Below, piece after piece: positions 9,593 through 58,329 of a stretch of 64,000 nt of DNA. Origin of the DNA: Heptranchias perlo. Its lineage: Eukaryota. Under the pieces are notes generated by a model. That model saw only the letters and a list, made by a program, of their open reading frames with translations. It did not search any database and was not told the origin of the DNA. Location: assembly GCF_035084215.1 (NCBI RefSeq), contig NC_090358.1, forward strand, positions 27,280,001 to 27,344,000, read 5' to 3'. Position numbers and translations under genes: made by a program. The number at the start of each line of letters is the position of its first letter. Position 1 is the first letter of the stretch.

Positions 9593-10912
9593 TTTTTAAA
9601 AATATTCATTCTTGGGATATGGGCATCGTTGGCAAGGTCAGCATTTAATGCTCATCCCTAGTTGCCCTGGAGAAGGTGGTGGAGAGCTGCCTTCCTGAAC
9701 CGTTGGAGTCCATGTGGTGAAGGTGCTGTTGGGTAGGAAGTTCCAGGATTTTGACCCAGCCTCCATGAAGGAGCAGCCATATATTTCCAAGTCAGGATGA
9801 TGCGTGACTGGGAAGGGAACTTGGAGATGATGGTGTTCCCAAGCGAACTGCTTTGTCCTGGATGGTGTCGAGTTTCTTGAGTGTTGTTGGAGCTGCACTC
9901 ATCCAGACAAGTGGAGAGTATTCCATCACACTCCTGACTTGTGCCTTGTTGGTGGTGAAGAGGCTTTGGAGAGTCAGGAGGTGAGCCACTCGCCTCTGAA
10001 TATGCAGCCTCTGACCTGCTGAAGAAGCCATGGCATTTATGTGGCTGGTCCAGTTGAGTTTCTAGTCAATGGTGACCCCCAAGATGTTGATGGTGGGGGA
10101 TTTGGCGATGGTAATGCCATTGAATGTCTTGTGAAGGTGATTAGATTCTCTCTTGTTGGAGATGGTCATTGCCTGGCACTTGTCTGGTGCAAATGTTACT
10201 TGCCACTTATCAGCCCAAGCCTGGATGTTGTCCAGATCTTGCTGCATGCGGGCTCGGACTGCTTCAATATCTGAGGAATTGCTGAACACTGTAATCATCA
10301 GCGATGGTTGAAGATGTTTGTGAACTATTGAGCCTTGTCTTTTGCACTCACGTGCTGGGTTCCACCGTCATTGAGGATGGGGATGTTCATGGAGCCTCCT
10401 CCTCCCGTTAATTGTCCACCATCATTTGCAACTGGATATGGTAGGACTGCAGAGCTTTGATCTGATTCGTTCATTGTGGGATCGCTTAGCTCTGTCTATA
10501 GAACGCTGCTTCCGCTGTTTAGCATGCATATAGTCCTGTGTTGCAACTTCACCAGGTTGGCACCACATTATTAGATACGCCTGGTGCTGCTCCTGGCTTG
10601 CTTTTCTATACTCTTCATTGAACCAGGGTTGATCATCTGTCTTGATGGTGATGGAGGAGTGAAGGATATGCCGGGCCACGAGGTTACAGATTGTGGTGGA
10701 ATACAATTCTGCTGCTGCTGATGGCCCACTGCACCTCATGGAAACCAGTTTTGAGCTGCTATTTCTGTTCTTAATATATCCCACTTAGCACAGTGTTAGT
10801 ATCACACCAATGGAGGGTATCCTCAGTGTGAAGATGGGAATTGGTCTTCGCAAGGACTGTGCAGTGGTCACTTCTACCAATACTGTCATGGACAGATGCA
10901 TTTGCGACAGGT
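9593..10912 (-). mobile_element. LINE family B copy, internally deleted
   Basis: Tail at ~9595. ORF2 pieces at 9792..10031, 10062..10298 (MQQDLDNIQAWADKWQVTF) and 10422..10784 (DQPWFNEE). Confidence 0.85.
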
Positions 10913-11673
10913 ATTTTTTTTTTATTCGTTCATGGGATGTGGGTGTCGCTGCAAGGACAGAATTTATTGCCCTTGAGAAAGTGGTGGTGAGCCGCCTTCT
11001 TGAACCGCTGCAGTCCGTGCAGTGAAGGTTCTCCCACAGTGCTGTTCGGAAGGGAGTTCCAGGATTTTGACCCAGCGACGATGAAGGAACGGCGATATAT
11101 TTCCAAGTCGGGATGGTTGTGACTTGGAGGGGAACGTGCAGGTGGTGTTGTTCCCATGTGCCTGCTGCTGTTGTCCTTCTAGGTGGTAGAGGTCGTGGGT
11201 TTTCTGGCGCAAATGTTACTTGCCACTTATGAGCCCAAGCCTGGATGTTGTCCAGGTCTTGCTGCATGCGGGCTCGGACTGCTTCATTATCTGAGGGGTT
11301 GCGAATGGAATTGAACACTGTGCCAGGCAATGACCATCTCCAACAAGAGAGAATCTAACCACCTTCCCTTGACATTCAACGGCATTACCATCACCGAATC
11401 CCCCACCATCAACATCCTGGGGGTCACCATTGACCAGAAACTTAACTGGATCAGCCATATAAATACTGTGGCTACAAGAGCAGGTCAGAGGCTGGGTATT
11501 CTGCAGCGAGTGACTCACCTCCTGACTCCCCAAAGCCTTTCCACCATCTACAAGGCACAAGTCAAGAGTGTGATGGAATACTCTCCACTTGCCTGGATGA
11601 GTGCAGCCCTCAAGAAACAGCCCACTTGATTGGCACCCCATCCACCACCTTAACCATTCACTCCCTTTACCAC
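10913..11673. mobile_element. Rearranged LINE family B copy (minus-strand 10913-11322 plus inverted plus-strand 11320-11673)
   Basis: Poly-T and tail at 10913. Minus strand reads VFNSIR...VTFAP fused to NPRPLPPRRT; plus strand reads CQAMTISNKRESNHL...MEYSPLAWMSAA. Confidence 0.85.
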
Positions 11674-31609: not shown

Positions 31610-34600
31610 ATGCGAAGGAAGTGTCGCCAGCTGGAGGAGCTCGAGCGCCGGATTTCGGAGCTCGAGCAGCAGCTGGCATGACTGCAGTGTATCCGTGAGG
31701 CTGAGAGTTTCATGGATAGCACGTTTCAGGAGGTGGCCACCCTGCGGCTTAAGAGTGTGCAGGCAGAGAGGGAATGGGTGACTGCCAGACACACAAGGAG
31801 GACCAGGCAGGTAGTGCAGGAGTCCCGAGTGCATCTCACTCTCTAAGCGGTACTGGTGAGGGCCAAGTCCACAGCACCATGGTGGCTCAGCTGTACAGGA
31901 GGAGAAGGGTCAGGAGAGCAATAGTGATAGAGGATTCAATACTTGGGGAACAGACAGGAGTTTCTGCGGTTGCAGACGAGAGTCCAGGATGGTACATTGC
32001 CTCCCTGCTGCCAGGGTCAAGGATGTCAGAGTGGCTGCAGAACATTCTGAAGAGGTAGGGTGAACAACCAGAGGTCATGGTCCATATAATTATAAACGAC
32101 AAAGGTAGAAAGAGGGATGAGTCCTGCAAGAATTTAGGGAGTTAGGAAAGAGATTACTAAACAGGACCTCAAAAAGGTAGTAATCACTGGATCACACGCT
32201 AGCGAGCATGGAAATAGGAGGATAGAGCAGATGAATGCGTGGCTGGAGAGATGGTGCAGGAGGGAGGGCTTTAGATTCCTGAGGCATTGGGACCAGTTCT
32301 GGGGGAAGTGGGACCTCTACAGGCCAGATGGGTTGCACCTCAACAGAGCAACATGCTTGCGGGGAGCTTCGCTAGTGTTGTGGGGAGGGCTTAAAACTAA
32401 TTTGGCAGGGGGATGGGCACCAGGATGTAGCACTGGAAAGGAGAAACAACGTGCACAAAGGATTGGGAGAGACAGATAGCACTAGAGTAAGAAATAGTAC
32501 GGTATTAGATGGGATCAGACTAAGAATACGAGTAGGTCCAAGATAGGTTTACAGTGCATGTGTGTAAACGCACGAAGCGTAGTAAACAAGGTGGGAGAGC
32601 TGCAGGCGCAATTAGCCATGTGGGAATTTGATGATGTGGTGATAACAGAGACCTGGATCAAAAAAGGGTGGGATTGGGTACTAAATATTCCTGGATACAA
32701 GGTGTTCAGGAAAGAAAGGGAAGGAAAGAAAGGAGGGGTGTGGTGGCAGTATTGATTAAGGAGAACATTGCAGTGCTGGAGAGAGAGGATGTCCGAGAGG
32801 GGTCAAGGACAGAATCTATTTGGTTACAGTTAAGAAACAATAAAGGTGCCATTACGCTACTGGGTGTATTCTATAGGCCACCACTAGTGGGAAGGATAGA
32901 GAGGAGAAAATTTGCAAGAAAATTACAGAGATGTGCAAGAACCATAAAGTAGTGATAATGGGGGATTTCAACTATCCTAGTATAGACTGGGATAATAGTG
33001 TAAGGGGCAGAGGGGGAGGAATTTTTGAAGTGTGTTCGGGAGAACTTTCTTGACCAGTACATTTCCAGCCCAACAGGGAAGGAGGCATTGCTGGATCAGG
33101 TTCTAGGGAATGAGGTGGGCCAAGTATCAGTGGGGGAACAATTTAGGGAACAATGATCATATTATCATAAGATTTAGATTAGCTATGGATAAGGACAAGG
33201 ACCACTCTAAAATAAAAATACTTAATTGGAGGAGGGCCAATTTCAGTGGGATAAGAACAGATCTGGCCAGGGTAAATTGGAATCAAAGATTGGCAGGCAA
33301 AACTGTAATTGAACAGTGGGCGGCCTTTAAGGAGGAGATGGTTTGGGTACAGTATAGTACATTCCCACGAGGGAGAAAGGTAGGGCAATTAAAGCCAGAG
33401 CTCCCTGGATGACAAAAGAGAGGAAGATGAAGCAGAAAAAAGGGGAGTATGACAGATGTCAGGTTGATAATACAAGTGAGAACCAGGTTGAATATAGAAA
33501 GTTCAGAGGGGAAGTGATAAAGGAAATAAGAGGAGCAAAGAGAGAGTACGAGAATAGACTGACGGCAAACATAAAAGGAAATCCAAAAGTCTTCTATATG
33601 TATGTAAACAGTAAACGGGTAATAAGGAGGGGTGGGAGCGATTAGGGACCAAAAAGGAGATCTAGCTTGGAGGCAGAGGGTGTGGCTGAGATACTAAATG
33701 AGTACTTTGCATCTGTCTTTACCAAGGAAGAAGATGCTGCCAAAGTCATGGTAAAAAATGGAGGGTACATTGCCTACTGGATGGGCTAAAAATTGATAAG
33801 AGGAGGTACTAGAAAGGCTAGCTGTGCTTAAAGTAGATAAGTCACCTGGTTCAGATGGGATGCATCCTAGGTTGCTGAGGGAAGTAAGGATGGAAATTGC
33901 GGAGCTATTGGTCATAATCTTCCAATCCTCCTTAGATACGGGGGTGGTGCCAGAGGACTGGAGAATTGCAAAGGTTACACTCTTGTTCAAAAAAGGGTGT
34001 AATGATAAACCCAGCAACCACAATCCAGTCAGTTTAACCTCGGTAGTGGGGAAACTTTTAGAAATGATAATCTGGGAAAAAATTAATAGTCACTTGGACA
34101 AGTGTGGATTAATTAAGGAAAGCCAGCATGGATTTGTTAAAGGCAAATCGTGTTTAACTAACTCGATTGAATTTTTTGGTGAGGTAACAGAAAGGGTAGA
34201 TGAGGGCAATGAAGTTGATGTGGTGTATATGGACTTCCAAAAGGTGTTTGATAAAGTGCCTAATAGGCTTGTCATCAAAGTTGAAGCCCATGGAATAAAA
34301 GGGGCAGTGGCAGCATGGATACAAAATTGGCTAAGTAACAGTAAACAGAGAGTAGTGGTGAATGGTTGTTTTTTGGGAGCGAGGTATACAGTGGTGTTCC
34401 CCGGGGGTCGGTACTAGAACCACTGCTTTTCTTGATATATATTAATGACTTGGGTGTACAGGACACAATTTCAAAATTTGCAGATGACACAGAACTTGGA
34501 AGGGTAGCGAACAGTGAAGAGGACAGCGATAGACTTCAAGAGGACCTAGACAGGCTGGTGGAATGGGCGGACACACAGCAGATGAAATTTAATGCAGAGA

Positions 34601-38072: not shown

Positions 38073-40316
38073 GTTTAATTTGATGAGAACTACAGATCTA
38101 AGGAAACACCAAAAAACCCAAGATATTAACTAATGGAAAACATCTGAAAACAAAATAATTGACTAGCTTAAAGTGGTTTTATAAAGGGGCAAAAACATGT
38201 ACCTGTTATTGTACCGCTTTAATTGGTTTTTACTTTTGACCGTCCTGCACCCAAAGAAGATGAGGAATGGAAATGTGTGAATATGGAGCAATTGTGATGG
38301 AACCGACAGACATGGGAGCATTAACAAGTGGTGGGTGGGGTAGGAGGAGAAGCTGTACTCCCAATCACTTAAAGGTAAAGCTCCAACCCAGCAGCATACT
38401 TTTGTAATTGAGAGCCAACAGGCTTCCTTGTTAAAATCCTTATTCAGCTGCAGGATGGAACAAAGCAGGAGGCTCCATGAATTCAAGAACAGAAGCTAGG
38501 AATGAAAGCAATTGCTATAGCAGCATTGCTAATTTCAGTCATGTGGTTAACTTCAGACGTTTATGACTGGGTATTACTTATGGCACATTGCTACTTTGTA
38601 AAAGGTATTGCCCAAGATTTCCTTTACCATCAGATTTAAAGGTTCCAACCCCTTTACGTATTTGCTATTTCAAGATCACATAGGAATAAGGGACCTGGAC
38701 TCAAAACTGTGCAAAGCATCCTCTGGACAAAAACATTACTGGTTTCTATTTGCCCAATTCTTTCCCATACCATATGTCTACAACATTTTCATTTATGCTG
38801 AACTGAACATTTTTAATATTCCTCTCTCTTGCATTCAAACCTTAGGAGTACTGTACAGCATTACTATGCTTTCTTAACCGTCATTCCCATATTGGCACTG
38901 TCTTAGATCCAATGGTACCAAGTCATACTTGGGTACTTCAATTGTTCAACTGACTTTTACCTCAACTTACCTGATCAGCAGTTAAGCTACGTTTTTAAAA
39001 AAGAAATTCATTCTTGGGATATGGGAGTCACTGGCAAGGCCAGTATTTATTGCCCATCCCTAGTTTCCTTTGAGAAGATGGTGGTGATCCGCCTTCTTGA
39101 ACAGCAGCAGTCCGTGTGGTGAAGGTGCTCCCATAGTGCTCTCAGATAGGGAGTTTCAGGATTTTGACCCAGCGACAATGAAGGAACAGCAATATATGTC
39201 CAAATCAGGGTGGTGCGAGACTTGGAGGTGATTGTGCTCCCACGCGCCTGATGTCTTTGTCCTTCTCGGGGGTAGGGGTCGCGGGTTTTGGAGGTGCTGT
39301 CGAAGAAGCCTTGGTGAGTACCTGCAGTGCATCCTGTAGATACTACACACTGCAGCCACAATCGAGGAGTGGATGTTTGAGGTGGTGGATGGGCTGCGGT
39401 TTTGTCCTGGATGGTGCCAAGTATCTTGAGCGTTGTTCCAGCTGCACACATCCAGGCAAGTGGAGTATTCCATCGCGCTGCTTACTTGTGCCTAGTCGGT
39501 GGCGGGGAGGCTTTGGGGAGTCAGGTGAGCCACAGAACACCCAGCCTCGGACCTGCTCTAGTAGTCACGGCATTTACGTGGCTGGTCCAGTTCAGTTTCT
39601 GGTCAATGGTGACCCCCAGAACGTTGATGGTGGGGGATTCGGCGATGGTATTGCCATCGAATGTCATGGGGAGGTGGTTAGACTCTTTTGTTGCAGATGG
39701 TCATTGCCTGGCACTTGTGGTGCAAATGTTACTTGCCTCTTATCAGCTCAAGCTTGGATGTTGTCCAGATCTTGCTGCACGCGGGCAGAGGCTGCTTCAT
39801 TATCTGAAGAATTGTGAATGGAGCTGAACACTGCAATCATCAGCTCCATTTCTGCTCTTATGATGGAGGGAAGGTCATTGATGAAGCACCTGCAGGTGTT
39901 TGGGCCTACGACGCTGCCCTGAGGAACTCCTGCAGTGATGCCATGGGGTTGAGATGATTGGCCTCCAAAAACCAACCATCTTCCTTTGTTCCAGGCACAA
40001 CTCCAGCCACTGGAGATTTTTCCCCAATTCCCACTGACTTTAGTTTTACAAGAGCTCCTTGGAGCCGCGTTGTGTCAAATGTTGCCTTGAGGTCAAGGGC
40101 AGTTACTCTGGCCTCACCTCTGGAATTCAGCTCTTTTGTCCATGTTTGGACAAAGACTGTAATGAGGTCAGGAGCTGAGTGGTCCTGGCGGAACCCAAAC
40201 TGAGCATCTGTGAGCAGGTTATTGGTGAGTAAGTGCCGCTTGATGCTCCTTCCATTGCTTTGCTGATAGGACAATAATTGGCCGTTGGATTTGTACTGCT
40301 TTTTGTGGACAGGACA

Positions 40317-40821
40317 AAGATATCTCTGGATTACTGCCAGTGCCAGGTACTAGAGAGTATAGGAATAGTAGGATAAGACAGGTTAATGCGTGGCTGGAGA
40401 AATGGTCAGGAGGGAGGGCTTCACATTCCTGGGGCATTGTGACCAGTTCTGGGGCAGGAGGAATCTGTTCAAGATGGACGGGTTGCACCTCAACAGAGCT
40501 GGGACCAATGTCCTCGGTTAACTAGTGCTATGGGGGAGGATTTAAACAAATTTGGCAGGGGCATGGGCACCAGGATGAAACATTAGAAAGGAGAAACAAG
40601 GTGCAGAGAAGATTGAGACACAAATAGCACTGGAGTAAAGAATAGTACAGAAATAGGAGGGATCAAAGAGGGAGCAAATGCTAGGCAGTATAAGATGAGT
40701 TTGGAGTGCATGTGCATAAATGCACGCAGCGTGGTGAATAAGGTTGGTGAGCTGCAGGCACAAGTCGCTACATAGGACTGATATAGTGGCAACAGAGATC
40801 TGGCTCAAAGAAGGGGAGGAT
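40317..40821 (+). mobile_element. Internal CR1 fragment (ORF1 end to ORF2 start) lacking a 3' tail
   Basis: IRQVNAWLEKW..., DGLHLN region and CMCINARSVVNKVGELQAQ, homologous to 32180-32680. Confidence 0.88.
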
Positions 40822-42571
40822 TGGGCAATTTTCCACATTGTCGGGTAGATGCCAGTGTTGTAGCTGTACTGGAACAGCTTGGCTAGAGGCATGGCTGGTT
40901 CTGGAGCACAAGTCTTTGGCACAACAGCCCAGATGTTGTCGGGACCCCTAGCCTTTGCTGTGTCCAGTGCACTCAGCAGGTGGAGTGAATTGAATTGGCT
41001 GAAGACTGGCTTCCGTGATGGTGTGGATATCAGGAGGAGGCTGGAGAAGGATCATTCACTCGGCACTTCTGGCTGAAAGTGGTTGTGAACGCTTCAGCCT
41101 TCTCTTTTACACTCACGTGCTGGGTTCCGCCATCATTAAGGATCGGGATGTTCAAGGAACCTCCTCCTCCTGTTAGTTGCTTAAGTGTCCACCATTATTC
41201 ACGACTGGATGCGCCAGGACTAAAGCTTTGATCTGACCCGTTGGTTGTGGGATTACTTAGCTCAGTCTATAGCATACTGCTTCCGCTGTTTAGCATCGCA
41301 TGTAGTCCTGTATTGTAGATTCATTAGTTTGGCACCTCATTTTCAGGTACGCCTGGTGCCGTTCCTGGCATGCTCCTCTATGCTCTGCATGGAACCAGGC
41401 TTGATGGTGATGGAGGAGTGAGGGGTATGCAGGGCCATGAGGTTACAGATTGTGGTGGAACACAATTCTGCTGCTGCTGATCGCTCAACGTCTCATGGAT
41501 GCCCAGTTTTGAGCTGCTAGATCTGTTTTTAAATCAATCCCTTTTATCATGGTGGTAGTGTCACATGACACAATGAAGGGTGGCCTCAGTGTGAAGACAG
41601 GACTTTGTCTCCACAAGGACTGTGCGGTGGTCTCTCCTAACAATACTGTCATGGACAGATTCATCTGCAGGTAGATTGGCGAGGACGAGGTCAAGTGTTG
41701 GTTCTCTCACTATCTGCCGCAAGACCAGTCTGGCAACTATATCCTTCAGGACTCTGCCAGCTTGGTCAGCGGTGGTATTACCAAGCCACTCTCGACGATT
41801 GACATTGAAGTCCCCCACCCAGAATACATTCTGTGCCCTTACAACCCTCAGTGCTTTCTCCAAGTGGCATTCAACATGGAGGAGTGCTGATCCATCAGCT
41901 GAGGGAGGGCAGTGGGTGGTAACCGGCAGGACATTTCCTTGCCCATGTTTGACCTGAAGCCATAGGGTCCAGAATCAATGTTGACTACTCACAGGGCCAC
42001 TCCTACCTGATTGGATACCACTGCGCCCCCACCTCTGGTGGGTCTGTCCTGCTGGTGGGACAGGAGATACCCAGGGACGGTGATGGAGGAGTCTGGGACA
42101 TTTGCTGATAAATACAGTTTTTTGAGAGTATAACTATGTCAGGCTGTTGCTCCACTAGTCTGTAGGACAGCTCTACCAACTTTGGCACCAGTCCCCAGAT
42201 GTTAGTGAAGCCAGGGTCGACTGGGCTGGGTGTGCCTTCGCCGTGTCCGAATCCAATGGCTAGTTCAAAGCAGCGGTCCATCCAGTTTTTTTGTTCTTAT
42301 CCATTTCTTTTTAGTGGTTTGATCAACAGCATAGCTTGCTAGGCCATTTCAGAGGTCATTTAAGAGTCAACCACATTGGTGTGGGACTGGAGTCACATAT
42401 AAGCAGGTTTCCTTCCCTAAAAAGGACATTTGTGAACCAGTTAGGTTTTTACAACAATCCAACAGCTTCATGGTCACTTTTACTGACATCAGCTTTTTAT
42501 TCCAGATTTATTTAGTTTTTAAAAAACTGAATTCAAATTCACAAACTTCCGTGGTTGGATTTGAACTCACA

Positions 42572-43243
42572 TTAACAGGTACAGCAAGCAATTAGGAAGG
42601 CAAATGGAATGTTGGCCTTTATTGCAAGGGGGTTGGAGTACAAGAGCAAGGAAGTCTTGCTGCAATTGTACAGGGGATTTGGTGAGACCACACCTGGAGT
42701 ACGGTGTACAGTTTTGATCTCCTTACCTTTGGAAGGATATACTTGCCTTAGAGATGGTACAATGAAGGTTCACCAGATTAATTCCTGGGATGAGAGGTTG
42801 TCCTATGAGGAGAGATTGAGTAGAATGGGCCTATACTCTCTGGAGTTTAGAAGAATGAGAGGTGATCTCAATGAAACATAAGATTCTGAGGGGGCTTGAC
42901 AGGGTAAATGCTGAGAGGCTGTTTCCTGTAGCTGGAGAGTCTAGAACCAGGTGGCAGAGTCTCGGGATAAGGGATCGGCCATTTAGGACCGAAATGAGAA
43001 GAAATTTCTTCACTTAGAGGGTTGTGAATCTTTGAAATTCTCTACCCCAGAGGGCTGTGGATGCTCAGTCGTAGTGTATTCAAGACTGAGATCAATAGAT
43101 TTTGGGACTCTAAGGGAACCAAGGGATATGGGGATCGAACAGGAAAGTGAATTTGAGGTCGAAGATCAGCCATGATCTTACTGAATGGCAGAGCAGGCTC
43201 GAGGGGCCGTGTGGCCTACTCCTGCTCCTATTTCTTATGTTCA
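42572..43243 (+). mobile_element. CR1 3' fragment inserted in the tRNA-like head of the family B element
   Basis: QVQQAIRKANGMLAFIARGLEYKSKEVLLQLY...; tail CCTACTCCTGCTCCTATTTCTTATGTTC. Confidence 0.92.
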
Positions 43244-45214
43244 TATCTCTGGATTATTAATCCAGGCGTCTGGATTACTAGTCCAGTAACATAACCAATT
43301 GTTCCACTCGAACAGATTTGTAAATGAGAAAGGAAACATCTCAGGATTTATAACTTGAGAACATTTGCCAGAACAATATTTCCTACCAAAGGTTTAGCAG
43401 CAAAAGACATGAATCCTTTCTATTCGTAATAAATTTTAGAAGCATAGCCTGTTACGGCAGCGTTGAAGCAGAGGTAAAACCTGGGAAAAGAACATGTACA
43501 CAGCAGTCTGGCTACTCGATGTCTGCAAGAACATACCGCACGAAAGTCAGAAGAACATCTTCAGTTTGCCTTACTGGACAGCAAAGGCTGAACAAACTTT
43601 CCACTTATTAAATCTTCAGAGATTCTCTGTTTACATTTTCTTGCTGCAATTTGCAGCTCCAGGGCCAACTTTTATCATTTAAAAGAATCTGAATTTTGCC
43701 CAAGATACCCCAATATCCTTTGAACAGCATGGATACTGGGTTGCTAAAGGTTGCTTTCCATTGAAGGTGGTGGCTGGGGAAAGCAATGCTCTTGTTTTTC
43801 TTCGTTATTCTCAGTCAATTCCCCTAGTTGGGCAGGAAGTGCTATATTTTGTTATTTTTACACCCAATTGTTAGTGGGTATTGTATTAAAGTCAAAAACA
43901 TTTTCACATTAAACTTTAAAACTGAAATTGAAAATAAAGATTGCATCGACAATAGCATAAAACAGAACAGATCTCTCTCCATTCCACTTTTGTTCAAGAT
44001 AATTTCATATGAGGTTTCAAATAGCAATTTTTCAAAAAAACAATTTGTACAAATTCCAATATTAAGGGCTATTTTTAAAAAAATCTAAAATCCACTAAAT
44101 GAGTCTGCAGAAGAAATAGCTGTCCCATCATTTGCGACAAATCATTTTTAAACTTAGAGCCATGTTATTTGTGCACTATTGAGGGTTCTAATCTAATTAA
44201 CAGTCAGTGTTCAAAAACACAATTCAGATGCAAAAATGCTTCAAACTGCACAAGAATTCCAGAGTCTATCACTTATCAGGCTGTATTACCCCAATAACTT
44301 AGCACTTGCTTAACCACTTCTGTCATCCAGACTGAGAATAATTTGACTTTATTACTGCATAACATTTTGCAAGAATAATGTGAATAAATATTATTCACAA
44401 AGCAGTCATCAAATTGGTAGTTGTGTATATATCTATCTTTAAACAGATGAAATTTACAGTTGCAAACCACTACACAAAAGTTTGCAGGATATGAGAGTCT
44501 GGGCAGTGACTCGTCCCAATCTTGTTGTCAGCCATCAATACATGCCAGCACGAGTGAGTAGATTGCAATGGGGCAGAAATTTCCCCCCCTCCTGCTTTCT
44601 AGCTTGGGGAGACAGGAGAGCAATAGTACCCTTCCCTGTGTCCTGGTTGAGATCAGCTAATTCTATGCAGAATATGGATCAGAGCCAAGGCCTCACTATC
44701 AGACCACCAAGTGCTTTTACTCACTTAGGACATGGAGTTGTTTTTTAAAAAATTACCTTAAGTTAGACAAGAAGGAAATTAACAAAATGTCACAAGAAAA
44801 TGAACTGATTCAGAGATTCCATAAACTTCATAGAGTGCACACCATTTAAAGCTAAATTCTTCAACAGGCAATACAGTTGCTCAGTTTTATCTACGTGGGT
44901 TAATTTTGTTAAAAACCTTAATTTAAGATTTAGTAACTAGGTTATATTTAACTTGTGTATACTGCAATACCCCACTCGACAAAAGCAGAATTCTTTACCT
45001 AAAGAGATTTGCACATTAAGTTAAAAAGCTTTCAGGAAGGTTTTTTTTAGGGATGAGGATGGGGCAGAATTAAAGGGTAAAAAGCACAAAACTATTGAAT
45101 TTAGAGAAGCTACGAAAATAAAAGTAGTCATAATTCTTTGGAAAGAGATAGACTCCTATTCCCAGGGTAAAGGCAACATATGGAAATTAGAACAAAACAT
45201 TGCTCCTGGAAAAG

Positions 45215-53709: not shown

Positions 53710-54405
53710 TCAGATTTTGCCGCAGCGGGGTATTTCCTGGCATGCGCCACTAGTTAGACTTTTTCTGCACTGCTCAGCTTGAAAATTATTTGACTTAAGG
53801 TGCTAGAAGTGCGAGCTGATAACGGTGCGGCAAGGACAATGGGGCATCTGGGACCTTAGTGAACGGCAGGAGAGATTTAAGGGTTGAGCAAGAAATAGAG
53901 GAATGTCTGAGAAGGAGGGTGAATTAATTAAATCAGGTACAGAAAGTAAAATAAGAGGGAAAGAATGATTGGATTGAGAAAAACAAAGGAAAAGAAAGAA
54001 CATTTTTTAATTTAAAATTTTTTAAATCTCAAAAAACAATTTACTATATGCAGGAATGAGAATCAACAGTTTAAATAGCTCCCTTTCTGGGCTGGAGAAG
54101 TTGACTGGCACTGCATTAACAATTATCACGTCATTAAAAGGGTATTTACTCTTAAGTATGATCTCTAACTTTCTGCGGCAAGCTTAATTCGAGTTTAATG
54201 TGCAAATCCAGCAAGTTCTTAAAATAACAGGGAAGTTGAGGGCGAGCTGCCATTTTGCAAGGTGGAGCGGCACAAATCGTCCAGCAACTTGCGGCCGTTC
54301 ACAATTCACAGGGTATCTCTTCCTCACCTCAAGTTCTTGGACGATTTACAACTTAACGGCAAGTACCATTAAAGTCGCCGTTATTTTGTCAGCAGATTCT
54401 GGGCC
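53710..54405. mobile_element. MITE-like element, copy 1
   Basis: Collinear with 55831-56460 (TAGTTAGACTTTTT, AAGTGCGAGCTG.TAACGG, AAATCAGGTACAGAAAG, CGCCGTTATTTTG). Ends in GCAGATTCTGGGCC. Confidence 0.7.
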
Positions 54406-55830
54406 AATTAATTTCAGACAAGTTGTTGACAGCATTTTTAAAAATAAAAATAAAACCAGAAACAAGCAGTGGGGCATTAAATGCTGACTTATTTTACAAT
54501 TTTAAGAGAGATCATTTAACTTAAAAGAGCCGAAGTAGTTAGAGGACTACAGACATGATTCCACCTGCTACACACAAGCCATGTAAATATAAGCAGCATC
54601 TTTCCCCTTCCTCCATGAGGATGCAATAAAATACATTCCTTTCAAGTATACTAGCAGGTTAGTTGTATACCAAAAAGAACTTGGTTGCTGCTAACATGGA
54701 AGTTCAGAGCAGGAATTCAAAAGGAAGGGATGCAACTAAAACAGTTTTAACACAAAATTACTAAAATAAGAAAAAAAATAAAACAAGGGAAAAGATTGTG
54801 TAGAAGTGAGATAAGGAATTAAAAAAAAAAAAATCTATATTAACAAAAAGGTAGAGAAAGATTCAATAAAGTTAGGTTGGGATGTGAGTCTCTTAACTCA
54901 CTGATATAAAAAGATATAGGATGATATTTCAGTTGATTAAAAAAACACCAAAATTAGTCCAATTTCTAAAAAGGTGAAGATTTCCATTACAAAAACTTAC
55001 AGGAATGTTCAGTCACAAGTCCAGAGAAAACATGTTAAAATAAATCTGAGATTTTACTGGATTGTATTTTAAGAACCTCTGGTTAAATTAATTCATTTCA
55101 AAACTGTGCAGAACTAGCTTCCAGGCAGGGACCCAAAATTATATGATTCTCTCAGTTAAATAATAGCCAAGCATGGTTTCAGATATTCTAATCAGTGTAG
55201 TTTCACACACAAACAGTGTCCTCAATGGAAAGTGTTATTTAACTAGCTCTTCCCACTGTTGAATCAGCTTCTTTTACAGTCCATCATGGATTTTTATCAA
55301 TATTCATCTCAAAGCTTGGTAAACTATTTCAGCACATATACATATGCAGCTTGCAAAGTATTTCAGCACACACATACAGCTTCCATGAGTTTTATTTATC
55401 CAGGAACTCTAGTTTAAAATGGCTTGTGCCTAATTAACTCCTGCTTTGTCAAGTTAAAACTTGTTTTCTTGAAGTCAGCAGGGAAATACTGGCGAGATAC
55501 CCAAGTAGCCAGTCAACGAGATTTTAGAAAAAAAGCTACTTGCCATTCAAGTAACTATAAAATGTTGCACATTCACTACAACTGAATGGGGTCTGTAAAA
55601 AAAAAATCACATTTACATTCAGGTGTCCTGGTTAACTGTGCTCCCAGGTTCAAGCTTATTCTCCACTTTTAAAAGTAAAAATACTATTGTACTGGCAACA
55701 AAACAAAAATACTCCATTCATCGTTCAACTCTTAACCGGTTCAGGGAAATTCAAGTTTTCAGCCAGCTGAGTGCCAGAATACTATAGATTGGCTCAGTCA
55801 CATTACCTAGTTGGTTCAATCTGACACACT

Positions 55831-56460
55831 GGCCCAGAATTTGCAGGGGCGGGGCATCTCGCAGTGTGCCCCTGTAGTTAGACTTTTTCCTTCGTCCTTC
55901 AATCGAAATTTTTTTGCACTGCAAGTGCGAGCTGGTAACGGCGCAATGAGAGCAATGGGGCATCAGGGAGCTTGGTGAACGATGGGACCAACAGTCTATC
56001 TCCTTAACCAACGAGACTTAAGGATTGAGAATGAAACGGAGGAACGATGGAGAAGGAAATAGGGTGAATTAGTGTCAAATCAGGTACAGAAAGAAGTGAA
56101 ATAAAGATTGGATTGAGAGAAAATAGATAAAGGAAAAGTAAGAATTTCTTTTTTAAAAATTTGAATTTTGAAATATTAAAAACAATTTACTACTTATAGG
56201 AATAAGACTCCACAGTTTTAATTGTTCCCTTTCTGGGTCGAGAGATTGAGTGGCATTGCAGGAACATAAATCTAGTCAGTGAAAAGGTACTTACACTGTT
56301 TAGTACTAGCCCTAACTTCCTGCAGTGCAAATCGTCCAGCGCCTTATGGGATTTGCAATTCATGTGTATCTCTTCCTTGCCACAAGTTGCTGGACAATTC
56401 ACACATTAATGATGGCGTGCACATTAAACGCGCCGTTATTTTGGCAGTAAATTCTGGCCC
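55831..56460. mobile_element. MITE-like element, copy 2, with imperfect ~14-bp TIRs
   Basis: GGCCCAGAATTTGC ... GTAAATTCTGGCCC termini; homologous to 53710-54405. Confidence 0.72.
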
Positions 56461-58329
56461 AATAAATCTCTGGGAATGGCTACTGGAAGAGCACTTTTAT
56501 CCCTGGTGCTGTCAGCCAGATTGTGATCATCCACAGCAACATAAAAAGGTTCTAATTAAAATTTCTAAAACTTTTCAAACACATACATGCAACAGCAATG
56601 CCATTTGCAAATCCGAAATTCATATTTTTACTTCAACCTAACCATTTCCTGACCCTACTTCAACAAACAAGTGCATCTTTTCTTAGGAAAATAGTTTTTT
56701 TTTTAAATTTGAAAAAAAATATTTTAGCCCATGTAAATAAGAAACCCCGACAGGTTTCCGCTAAGTCCAGTGCAGTAGTAAGTACAAATTTATATAAATA
56801 CAAACCTGGAAGACTAAGTTATTTGTTCTTTTTTTAAAAAAGAAATAACTCTCTTTTAATTAGAAAAAAAGTTAGGGAAAAAAAGTGCTCTTGGCCTTCC
56901 AAACGGGCCAGTCAAAGTCACCATGGCTTGACCGAGTTTCTGTAACTACATGTGAATAAAGAACAGATGCAGTAGACTCGGCCAGTATTAGTCACTACTG
57001 GTACCTAACCCAGCAGAATCCAAATGTCACCAAGCTGCAATCTAAGGGTAAACTTAATAATGAGTTGAAAAAAGTACAAGAACAGATTTTTTTTTAAAAA
57101 GTGTGATCATTTACAAACAAAACAAAGGTCTATTATACATTTAACATAGAAGCAATCAATTCATATAACATCGTAAAAAAATCCTTTCGGATTCAAAATA
57201 ATTAAAGCCTTAGTCTGAATGGTTGGAGTTTAGACTAGGCTTTTACACATCTATCAGAAACATCCCAAAGTACTTCACCACAATGAATTGCTTTTGAAGT
57301 GTAGTACCTACTGCTAGGTTAAGTTAATACAATTAATACTTTAAAATCGGCCAACGGTTGCCATAACTGAGGAAAGCTGCTTCAAATTAAGCTCAGGCCA
57401 CCTACTAAATCACCATGAAATAGTACAATGTTAAATATACTCAAAAGAAATAGGAGAAAATAAGTTACTCAGTTTACTGAAGGTTGCAAGTATGCTGGAT
57501 TAATTCAGAGTAGACTGTAGCAGGATTTCATCCTTGGACTGCAAGCCTGAACATCTTCTGCCAAGCAACTAGTCAATTAAAAAAAAATTCAAAAAACCGA
57601 TTCCCAGCATATACCTCAATTTCTTGATTTTTGCATTATTTGTACCCCTGACTGGATGCCGCTTTCCCCCTCCCCCGGGTTTAATACTTATTGTTTTGTA
57701 AGCACAAGATTAGCTGTCAGTCAATGTGATGTCATTTCAGCAAGCCCCACCCACTGCAACACCTTACCCAATGTGGGTAAAAACTGAGTGAAAGTACCAG
57801 AAATGCAGCTGATTAATTAAATAGGCTACACCTGACAATTTTCTGAAGACTGTTTTACTTCACCCAGAGGAAGGGTCACTACAGCCACAAAACTGTTTCA
57901 AAAGCCATCTTGCTTATGCACTTTGCCATGGCTGTGGAGGGCAATAATACTGCCTCTCATGTCTACGCAGCTTGGTTTGGAGTTGGCATAAATGCAAAAG
58001 TGGCCAAGTAACTCAAGATGCGAGACTCCCTTTAGGGAGGCACCTCACGGGATTTTGAATTCGCAAGTGCAATATAACTCCATTGTAAAACAACAGGGCT
58101 GAAGTTTCCACTCTGCCTTCTCTGAACATTGGCCAGAGGCAGAAGGCGAAAGATAAAACAAGATCAATCAGCAGCAACCTTTACCAAAAAGAACTATGGA
58201 GCAAAACCGTTAGATATACACAGCCGTCTGCCAGCCCTCCTACTTGCAGCACACATTACCCTGGGAAGCCATGCAGGGAATAAAATACATACAAGTTTAT
58301 CTTAAAAAAAATTACATGATTGCTATCCT

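Follow-up and report, generated by a model that had tools for sequence, protein, structure and literature searches.

The minus strand of a 64,000-nt window of the Heptranchias perlo genome (contig NC_090358.1, positions 27,280,001 to 27,344,000) carries a long interspersed nuclear element (LINE) that, judged by its sequence, is an almost full-length though decayed copy of the Zenon of elasmobranchs, a family of the CR1 group without open reading frame 1 (ORF1). The family, its ORF1-less state, and its consensus are already published. [quoted passage not shown] The unit runs from approximately 43310 to 38992 and measures 3,139 nt once two CR1 inserts are removed. Head, body, and spacer together take up 436 nt of this, and a broken frame of 2.6 kb and a short tail follow. 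Its parts are listed below in window coordinates (APE, apurinic/apyrimidinic endonuclease; RT, reverse transcriptase; UTR, untranslated region).

43244..43310, minus strand: 5' part of the tRNA-like head (Rfam tRNA, under threshold; the same head opens 7/7 published elasmobranch Zenon consensus rows)
43306-43295, minus strand: degenerate A-box-like stretch of the head
43286-43270, minus strand: anticodon-arm-like hairpin of the head
43265-43249, minus strand: second similar arm of the head
42572..43243, plus strand: 3' end of a CR1 LINE, a later antisense insertion that separates the second arm of the head from its B box
42557..42568, minus strand: B box of the head (motif shared with the consensus heads of Squalus)
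42334..42556, minus strand: body of the 5' UTR (conserved block 42459-42334 common to five shark and ray species; deep contig cover in 4/4 runs)
42207..42333, minus strand: spacer of 127 nt, family-wide (contig letters and Hypanus consensus, read by eye)
40823..42206, minus strand: 5' part of ORF2 with APE endonuclease, linker, and start of RT, broken by stops and frameshifts
40317..40822, plus strand: internal CR1 fragment, a later antisense insertion (end of an esterase-like ORF1, as we take it to be, and start of ORF2)
39060..40316, minus strand: 3' part of ORF2 with RT core and C-terminal domain, broken (stop codon 39062-39060)
38992..39059, minus strand: 3' UTR and tail (AATAAA, stem-loop with z -1.8, T-run, A run)

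The initial annotation of this locus had proposed a continuous minus-strand unit of ~3.1 kb, and the motifs that it quoted were all recovered where it had placed them. The head starts at 43310 and the endonuclease at 42206, 127 nt past the end of the body (the annotation had given ~130 nt); the 436 nt from head start to endonuclease hold no ORF1, and a single APE-RT frame follows. That frame, also proposed, was borne out by Pfam, which recognized both endonuclease and RT, and by an intact 938-aa relative that aligned collinearly over 42114-39069. Since stops and frameshifts interrupt the frame, in keeping with the decay that had been noted, both Pfam scores on single stop-free pieces (Exo_endo_phos_2, E 1.5e-5; RVT_1, E 1.9e-5) fell short of the curated cut-offs. 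The family tails, of which at least five had been counted in the window, were located near 73, 9660, 10985, 20940, and 39062, and all five end in five or more A, as poly-A and not microsatellite tails.

The tRNA-like head was upheld as well. Its likeness to tRNA is clear in the published consensus heads but weak in the Heptranchias copy alone, where the Rfam score of 22.7 bits (E 0.062) fell short of the threshold, 29. ARAGORN called no tRNA in the copy at default settings; when relaxed, its calls were confined to one on the antisense strand at 85 and one on the sense strand at 80 that had no tRNA assigned, with no sense-strand tRNA at 85-90. Two similar tandem hairpin arms lie within the head (43249-43286, minus strand; 84% inverted match, z -2.5). 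These arms lengthen the distance from the A-box-like start to the B box, which is 67 nt with the insert skipped, and the head may resemble the tRNAs with a long variable arm. The body folded no better than shuffles (z -0.15).

Family identity and the junction of head and ORF2

We compared the element with the consensus rows in Supplementary Table 2 of Stuart et al. 2026 (PMC13343379), using the first 400 nt of each row. The same order of head, body, and spacer opened all seven elasmobranch rows (CarCar, HypSab, RhiTyp, and ScyCan Zenon-1; SquAca Zenon-1, -2, and -3), which were colinear by eye over this length. A 13-nt body motif matched 7/7 rows, from four sharks and one ray, while the head motif was exact in 2/7. 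Because all seven published rows share this order, the junction of head to ORF2 is no accident but part of the family architecture, and the concern that it might be unique to this locus can be set aside.

A single APE-RT frame without ORF1 and a tail rich in A are common to the Heptranchias copy and the elasmobranch Zenons; the lack of ORF1 and the poly-A tail are described as traits of all Zenons (PMC13343379). The consensus lengths of the elasmobranch families are 2,886-3,314 nt, compared with 3,139 nt here, and three of the species tabulated have 612 to 2,313 long copies per genome (PMC13343379). By eye, the Heptranchias head is nearest to the SquAca rows. Unlike the published consensus, the copy is decayed and carries two CR1 inserts.

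The initial annotation had allowed that the architecture might already be in databases. It is indeed present in the published consensus rows; as to the head, the main text of PMC13343379 contained zero matches for tRNA, promoter, polymerase, or Pol III, so that the head is present in the data of Stuart et al. but is unremarked in that text. A tRNA-headed Zenon was not described in the literature searched, a scope outside which Repbase, Dfam, Weber et al. 2020, and the supplement of PMC5499810 lie.

The closest named proteins were from Heterodontus francisci and Rhincodon typus. In an RT tree (FastTree, 92 rows, with rows of <280 residues, including bird CR1, excluded), the window copy, projected on P0057 with 540/938 columns filled, was sister to an unnamed ORF1-less clade with a support of 0.84 (0.92 for the wider clade); this tree, in which no row is labelled as a Zenon, is no more than compatible with the Zenon assignment. 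The element was 27-41% identical to a bird CR1 protein, compared with 48-61% for the RT pieces of the CR1 copies in the window. In PDB, the intact homolog had distant RT relatives only and the window piece had none, and an Atlas search added only endonuclease-RT clusters. DNA pattern scans of viral and metagenome contigs, a protein scan of viral contigs, and a first word-index protein search yielded no match. Two Heterodontus gene models, P0001 and P0005 (CWC25 homolog and zinc finger 850-like), hold pieces of the family ORF2 at 55-70% identity, which represent either mis-annotation or exonisation.

Contigs from 4 of 24 runs were mapped on 38900-43400 at 80% likeness. Three of these were DNA runs; the fourth, X2, is only guessed to be RNA, and its three near-identical contigs and its joined forms were not counted as expression. 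All 30 bins were covered in all four runs. In the three DNA runs, summed depth, which is no copy number, reached ~221k, 235k, and 150k for the spacer only, near the 667k, 90k, and 214k of the endonuclease bin and far above the 14-62 of individual contigs listed. Head, body, spacer, and endonuclease were deeply covered in contigs from three organisms. The joints listed were 15 of ~4,600 and the pieces listed 32 of ~587,700. Among those listed, one X2 contig (depth 921) ran from the body through 38 letters, which by eye resemble the start of the spacer, into the last 130 nt of the element. It is a deletion form resembling a short interspersed nuclear element (SINE), observed in one contig only.

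Extra letters at 42208-42211, across the border of spacer and endonuclease, were present in 24, 7, 21, and 13 contigs of the four runs, and by eye the spacer of the Heptranchias copy appears to have undergone a small deletion relative to the Hypanus consensus. Read by eye in that consensus, the spacer (42207-42333) encodes an N-terminal extension that is rich in Arg, shares the reading frame of the endonuclease, and resembles the basic N-termini of invertebrate relatives.

Both inserts proved to be CR1, as proposed, although the one at 40317-40822 is an internal piece and not a 3' end. By self-BLAST of the window, 43242-42576 and 40825-40350 matched other CR1 pieces at 66-78%. The insert at 42572-43243 encodes the C-terminal peptide of CR1 ORF2 and matches CR1 3' pieces in the window, and that at 40317-40822 matches window 32199-32678 at 75% and, by translation, holds the end of ORF1 and the start of ORF2. 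Among the joints listed, forms joined without the first insert occurred in 3, 2, 0, and 1 contigs of the four runs, and forms without the second (40316 to 40822) in 25, 5, 28, and 9. This second CR1 piece (plus strand) has no 3' tail, and the joined contig forms carry 4-7 extra target letters, indicating that the insertion site lost a few bases and gained no duplication. Capture during break repair suits this insert better than normal retrotransposition does.

Elsewhere in the window, 9593-11664 holds a cluster of pieces of the same family: a copy that has lost a large internal stretch (10905-10305 joined to 10302-9593), another 3' end just upstream of it, and an inverted piece (11320-11664). 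A local direct duplication (53711-54415 and 55835-56470, 68-75% identity) had no match elsewhere in the window. No host exon was found among the 21 of 47 long window frames scanned.

Origin of the head

The initial annotation had read the body as a Meta-domain and the whole as, in effect, a MetaSINE whose body and tail are separated by an ORF2. Neither reading found support. Three Meta and two Deu-domain 11-mers fit the body (best 3-4 mismatches) no better than shuffles, 57-100% of which were as good; all five came from the bivalve consensus sequences that Nishihara et al. 2016 (PMC4824008) print for MetaSINEs, and they were compared as short motifs without a full alignment. Motifs of the body and tail were absent from the four supplements searched. 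Of the MetaSINE traits, the element has the tRNA-derived head, but no 66-bp Meta-domain was found directly after it (bivalve members, short motifs), and the element is not short and non-coding, with 2.6 kb of ORF2 between body and tail. MetaSINEs (PMC4824008) and the SacSINE1 Deu-SINEs (PMC5499810) resemble Zenon in that a tRNA-derived head is followed by a conserved body; unlike Zenon they are short and non-coding, Meta and Deu motifs were not found in the body of the Heptranchias copy, and the tail of SacSINE1 is that of L2 (PMC5499810). The tails of bivalve Meta, V, Core, and Deu SINEs match CR1-Zenon 3' ends (Martelossi et al. 2024, PMC11481361) and a hagfish MetaSINE carries a CR1-type tail, which makes a likeness to MetaSINE tails plausible at the level of the clade. 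Even with this likeness, and with the SINE-like deletion form in one contig, we consider it very unlikely that this is an ORF2-bearing MetaSINE or the autonomous element from which MetaSINEs derive. That an independent SINE merely adjoins a 5'-truncated LINE at this single locus is so improbable that we give it almost no weight. No second head or body was found in the window, and no target-site duplication was found around the unit (best 8 nt, one mismatch), both of which would suit such an accident; the same order in 7/7 published consensus rows refutes it, and contig depth over spacer and junction is high in three organisms.

By eye, the tRNA-like head was absent from all three hagfish and coelacanth Zenon rows. 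Rfam matched a tRNA in 0/15 related loci scanned, and blastn with head and tail gave no match in 78/78 related loci. The nearest relatives with a 5' end, L001 and L005, have an apparent 5' UTR of ~200-280 nt and no ORF1. In these invertebrate-type elements a short conserved 5' UTR motif precedes ORF2 (L001 450-600 and L005 365-500, plus strand); it had no Rfam match and a fold z of -1.1.

Given the head in a ray and four sharks and its absence from the other relatives, we infer that it was likely captured on the common stem of sharks and rays. The initial annotation had offered two origins, and of these the capture of a tRNA- or SINE-type head by a Zenon LINE is the better fit, because the hagfish, coelacanth, and invertebrate relatives have no such head; an ancient LINE that was parent to SINEs is the weaker for the same reason, and the deletion form was seen in one contig.

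The hagfish Zenons, the coelacanth CR1-5_LCh, and the lepidopteran Zenons with the SIDE Persaeus belong, as here, with the ORF1-less CR1-group LINEs with poly-A. Persaeus is an internally deleted derivative of a lepidopteran Zenon and is stated to have neither tRNA homology nor a Pol III promoter (PMC6740152). Bov-tA, AfroSINE, and CoeSINE4 place a tRNA head on the 5' and 3' parts of a LINE (PMC5786205), which would be the layout of the X2 deletion form. Such bipartite SINEs gain the head after loss of the ORF, whereas the head of the shark and ray Zenon stands on a full coding element, and the LINEs reported to have supplied SINE middles are RTE and Vingi alone (Kojima 2018, PMC5786205). A precedent is RTE-1_DAn, an autonomous LINE with a tRNA-like sequence that matches many SINE2 elements, although it belongs to the RTE clade, unlike Zenon, and is known here from one sentence (PMC5786205). 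In Zenon, capture of the head could have occurred by template switch or by recombination with a tRNA or SINE RNA.

Transcription by Pol III or Pol II

The A and B boxes at the 5' end, together with the small number of T-runs in the sense strand, suggest transcription by Pol III. Reading the rows by eye against what we take to be the A and B box consensus, we found an A-box-type motif in 7/7 elasmobranch rows, starting at consensus position 6-11, and an intact B-box-type motif in 6/7. A run of four T occurred in 0/7 elasmobranch rows in the first 400 nt, compared with 3/3 of the hagfish and coelacanth Zenons (by eye). The five window copies (4,918 nt) contained one sense-strand T4 run where 6.8 were expected, while ten other LINE pieces in the window had 30 (24.6 expected) and five invertebrate relatives had 25 (23.0 expected). 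A T-run lies directly before the A run and downstream of AATAAA in 3/5 tails (AATAAA is one base off in one copy), which is the order found in polyadenylated Pol III SINEs, where the T-run is placed after AATAAA and before the A run (PMC8466645).

We think it somewhat probable that the tRNA-like head of this Zenon was captured before sharks and rays split and likely acts as an internal Pol III promoter for a 3.3-kb coding RNA, with Pol III transcription itself favored at slightly better than an even chance. A fuller account, in which an autonomous coding LINE exchanged its promoter for a Pol III promoter derived from a tRNA, rid its 3.3-kb coding strand of T-run terminators, is translated uncapped, and gives rise to SINEs by a single internal deletion, is more tentative, and its chances are a little short of even. 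With transcription by Pol III, TFIIIC would bind the A and B boxes of the head, and Pol III would start a few bases upstream of the A box, cross a strand poor in T-runs, and halt near the 3' end, leaving an RNA that would be translated without a normal cap. The ORF2 protein of LINEs nicks DNA and reverse-transcribes from the 3' tail, so that most LINE copies are 5'-truncated; an occasional internal deletion would give the SINE-like forms.

Several observations weigh against Pol III. The five window copies overlap in ancestral position, which makes their pooled P (0.005-0.01) look stronger than it is; for the long copy by itself P was 0.06-0.08, or 0.30 under a first-order Markov model. In the Heptranchias copy the A box is degenerate and the 5' UTR contains T6 and T5 runs, features that the published heads do not have, and the T-run is missing in 2/5 tails. 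By eye, the AUG that lies nearest in the Hypanus consensus is not in frame, and translation of a 3-kb frame from uncapped RNA lacks an explanation. The consensus rows were compared over 400 nt only, and a single contig bridging body and endonuclease was absent among the pieces listed (32 of ~587,700). Poly-A is common to all Zenons, headless ones included (PMC13343379), and LINE-type RNAs are considered very likely to be Pol II products (Kojima 2018, PMC5786205).

The same captured head on a Pol II transcript is accordingly a possible alternative, which we rate well below an even chance. Head and body would then act as a Pol II promoter or lie within one, or the RNA would arise by readthrough from a host promoter, and the A and B boxes would persist as leftovers or as TFIIIC sites. 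Such a transcript agrees with the established view of LINE mRNAs as Pol II products (Kojima 2018, PMC5786205); AATAAA and poly-A, common to the headless Zenons, suit ordinary 3' processing, the T-run depletion of the long copy is not significant, and a cap would settle the matter of translation. It sits less easily with consensus 5' ends that fall 5-10 nt before the A box in 7/7 rows and with boxes kept across sharks and a ray (both by eye), and the control LINE pieces and headless relatives do not have the T-run depletion. A third role, that of a processing signal co-transcribed from upstream and cut at the 5' end like the R2 ribozyme, seems quite improbable. A fixed 5' end would then need no Pol III, and self-cleaving 5' ends occur in six LINE clades (Kojima 2018, PMC5786205). 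No cloverleaf was predicted, however, ARAGORN found no sense-strand tRNA at 85-90, and the consensus heads keep the promoter boxes but have no acceptor stem (by eye).

As read from the consensus sequences, the tRNA-type head on an autonomous Zenon is a real, family-wide feature, and Pol III, which we prefer to Pol II, may make the Zenon RNA. The usual rule is that LINEs are Pol II mRNAs and SINEs are Pol III non-coding RNAs. If the head is a Pol II feature or inert, what is left of the finding is an annotation note on a family already published. If Pol III does read it, a coding LINE would have kept a tRNA-type promoter head across sharks and rays, which would blur that rule. The family would then put to a natural test whether Pol III can transcribe a 3-kb frame and whether the RNA can be translated uncapped, and would offer a one-step route from LINE to SINE, in the reverse order of the bipartite model.

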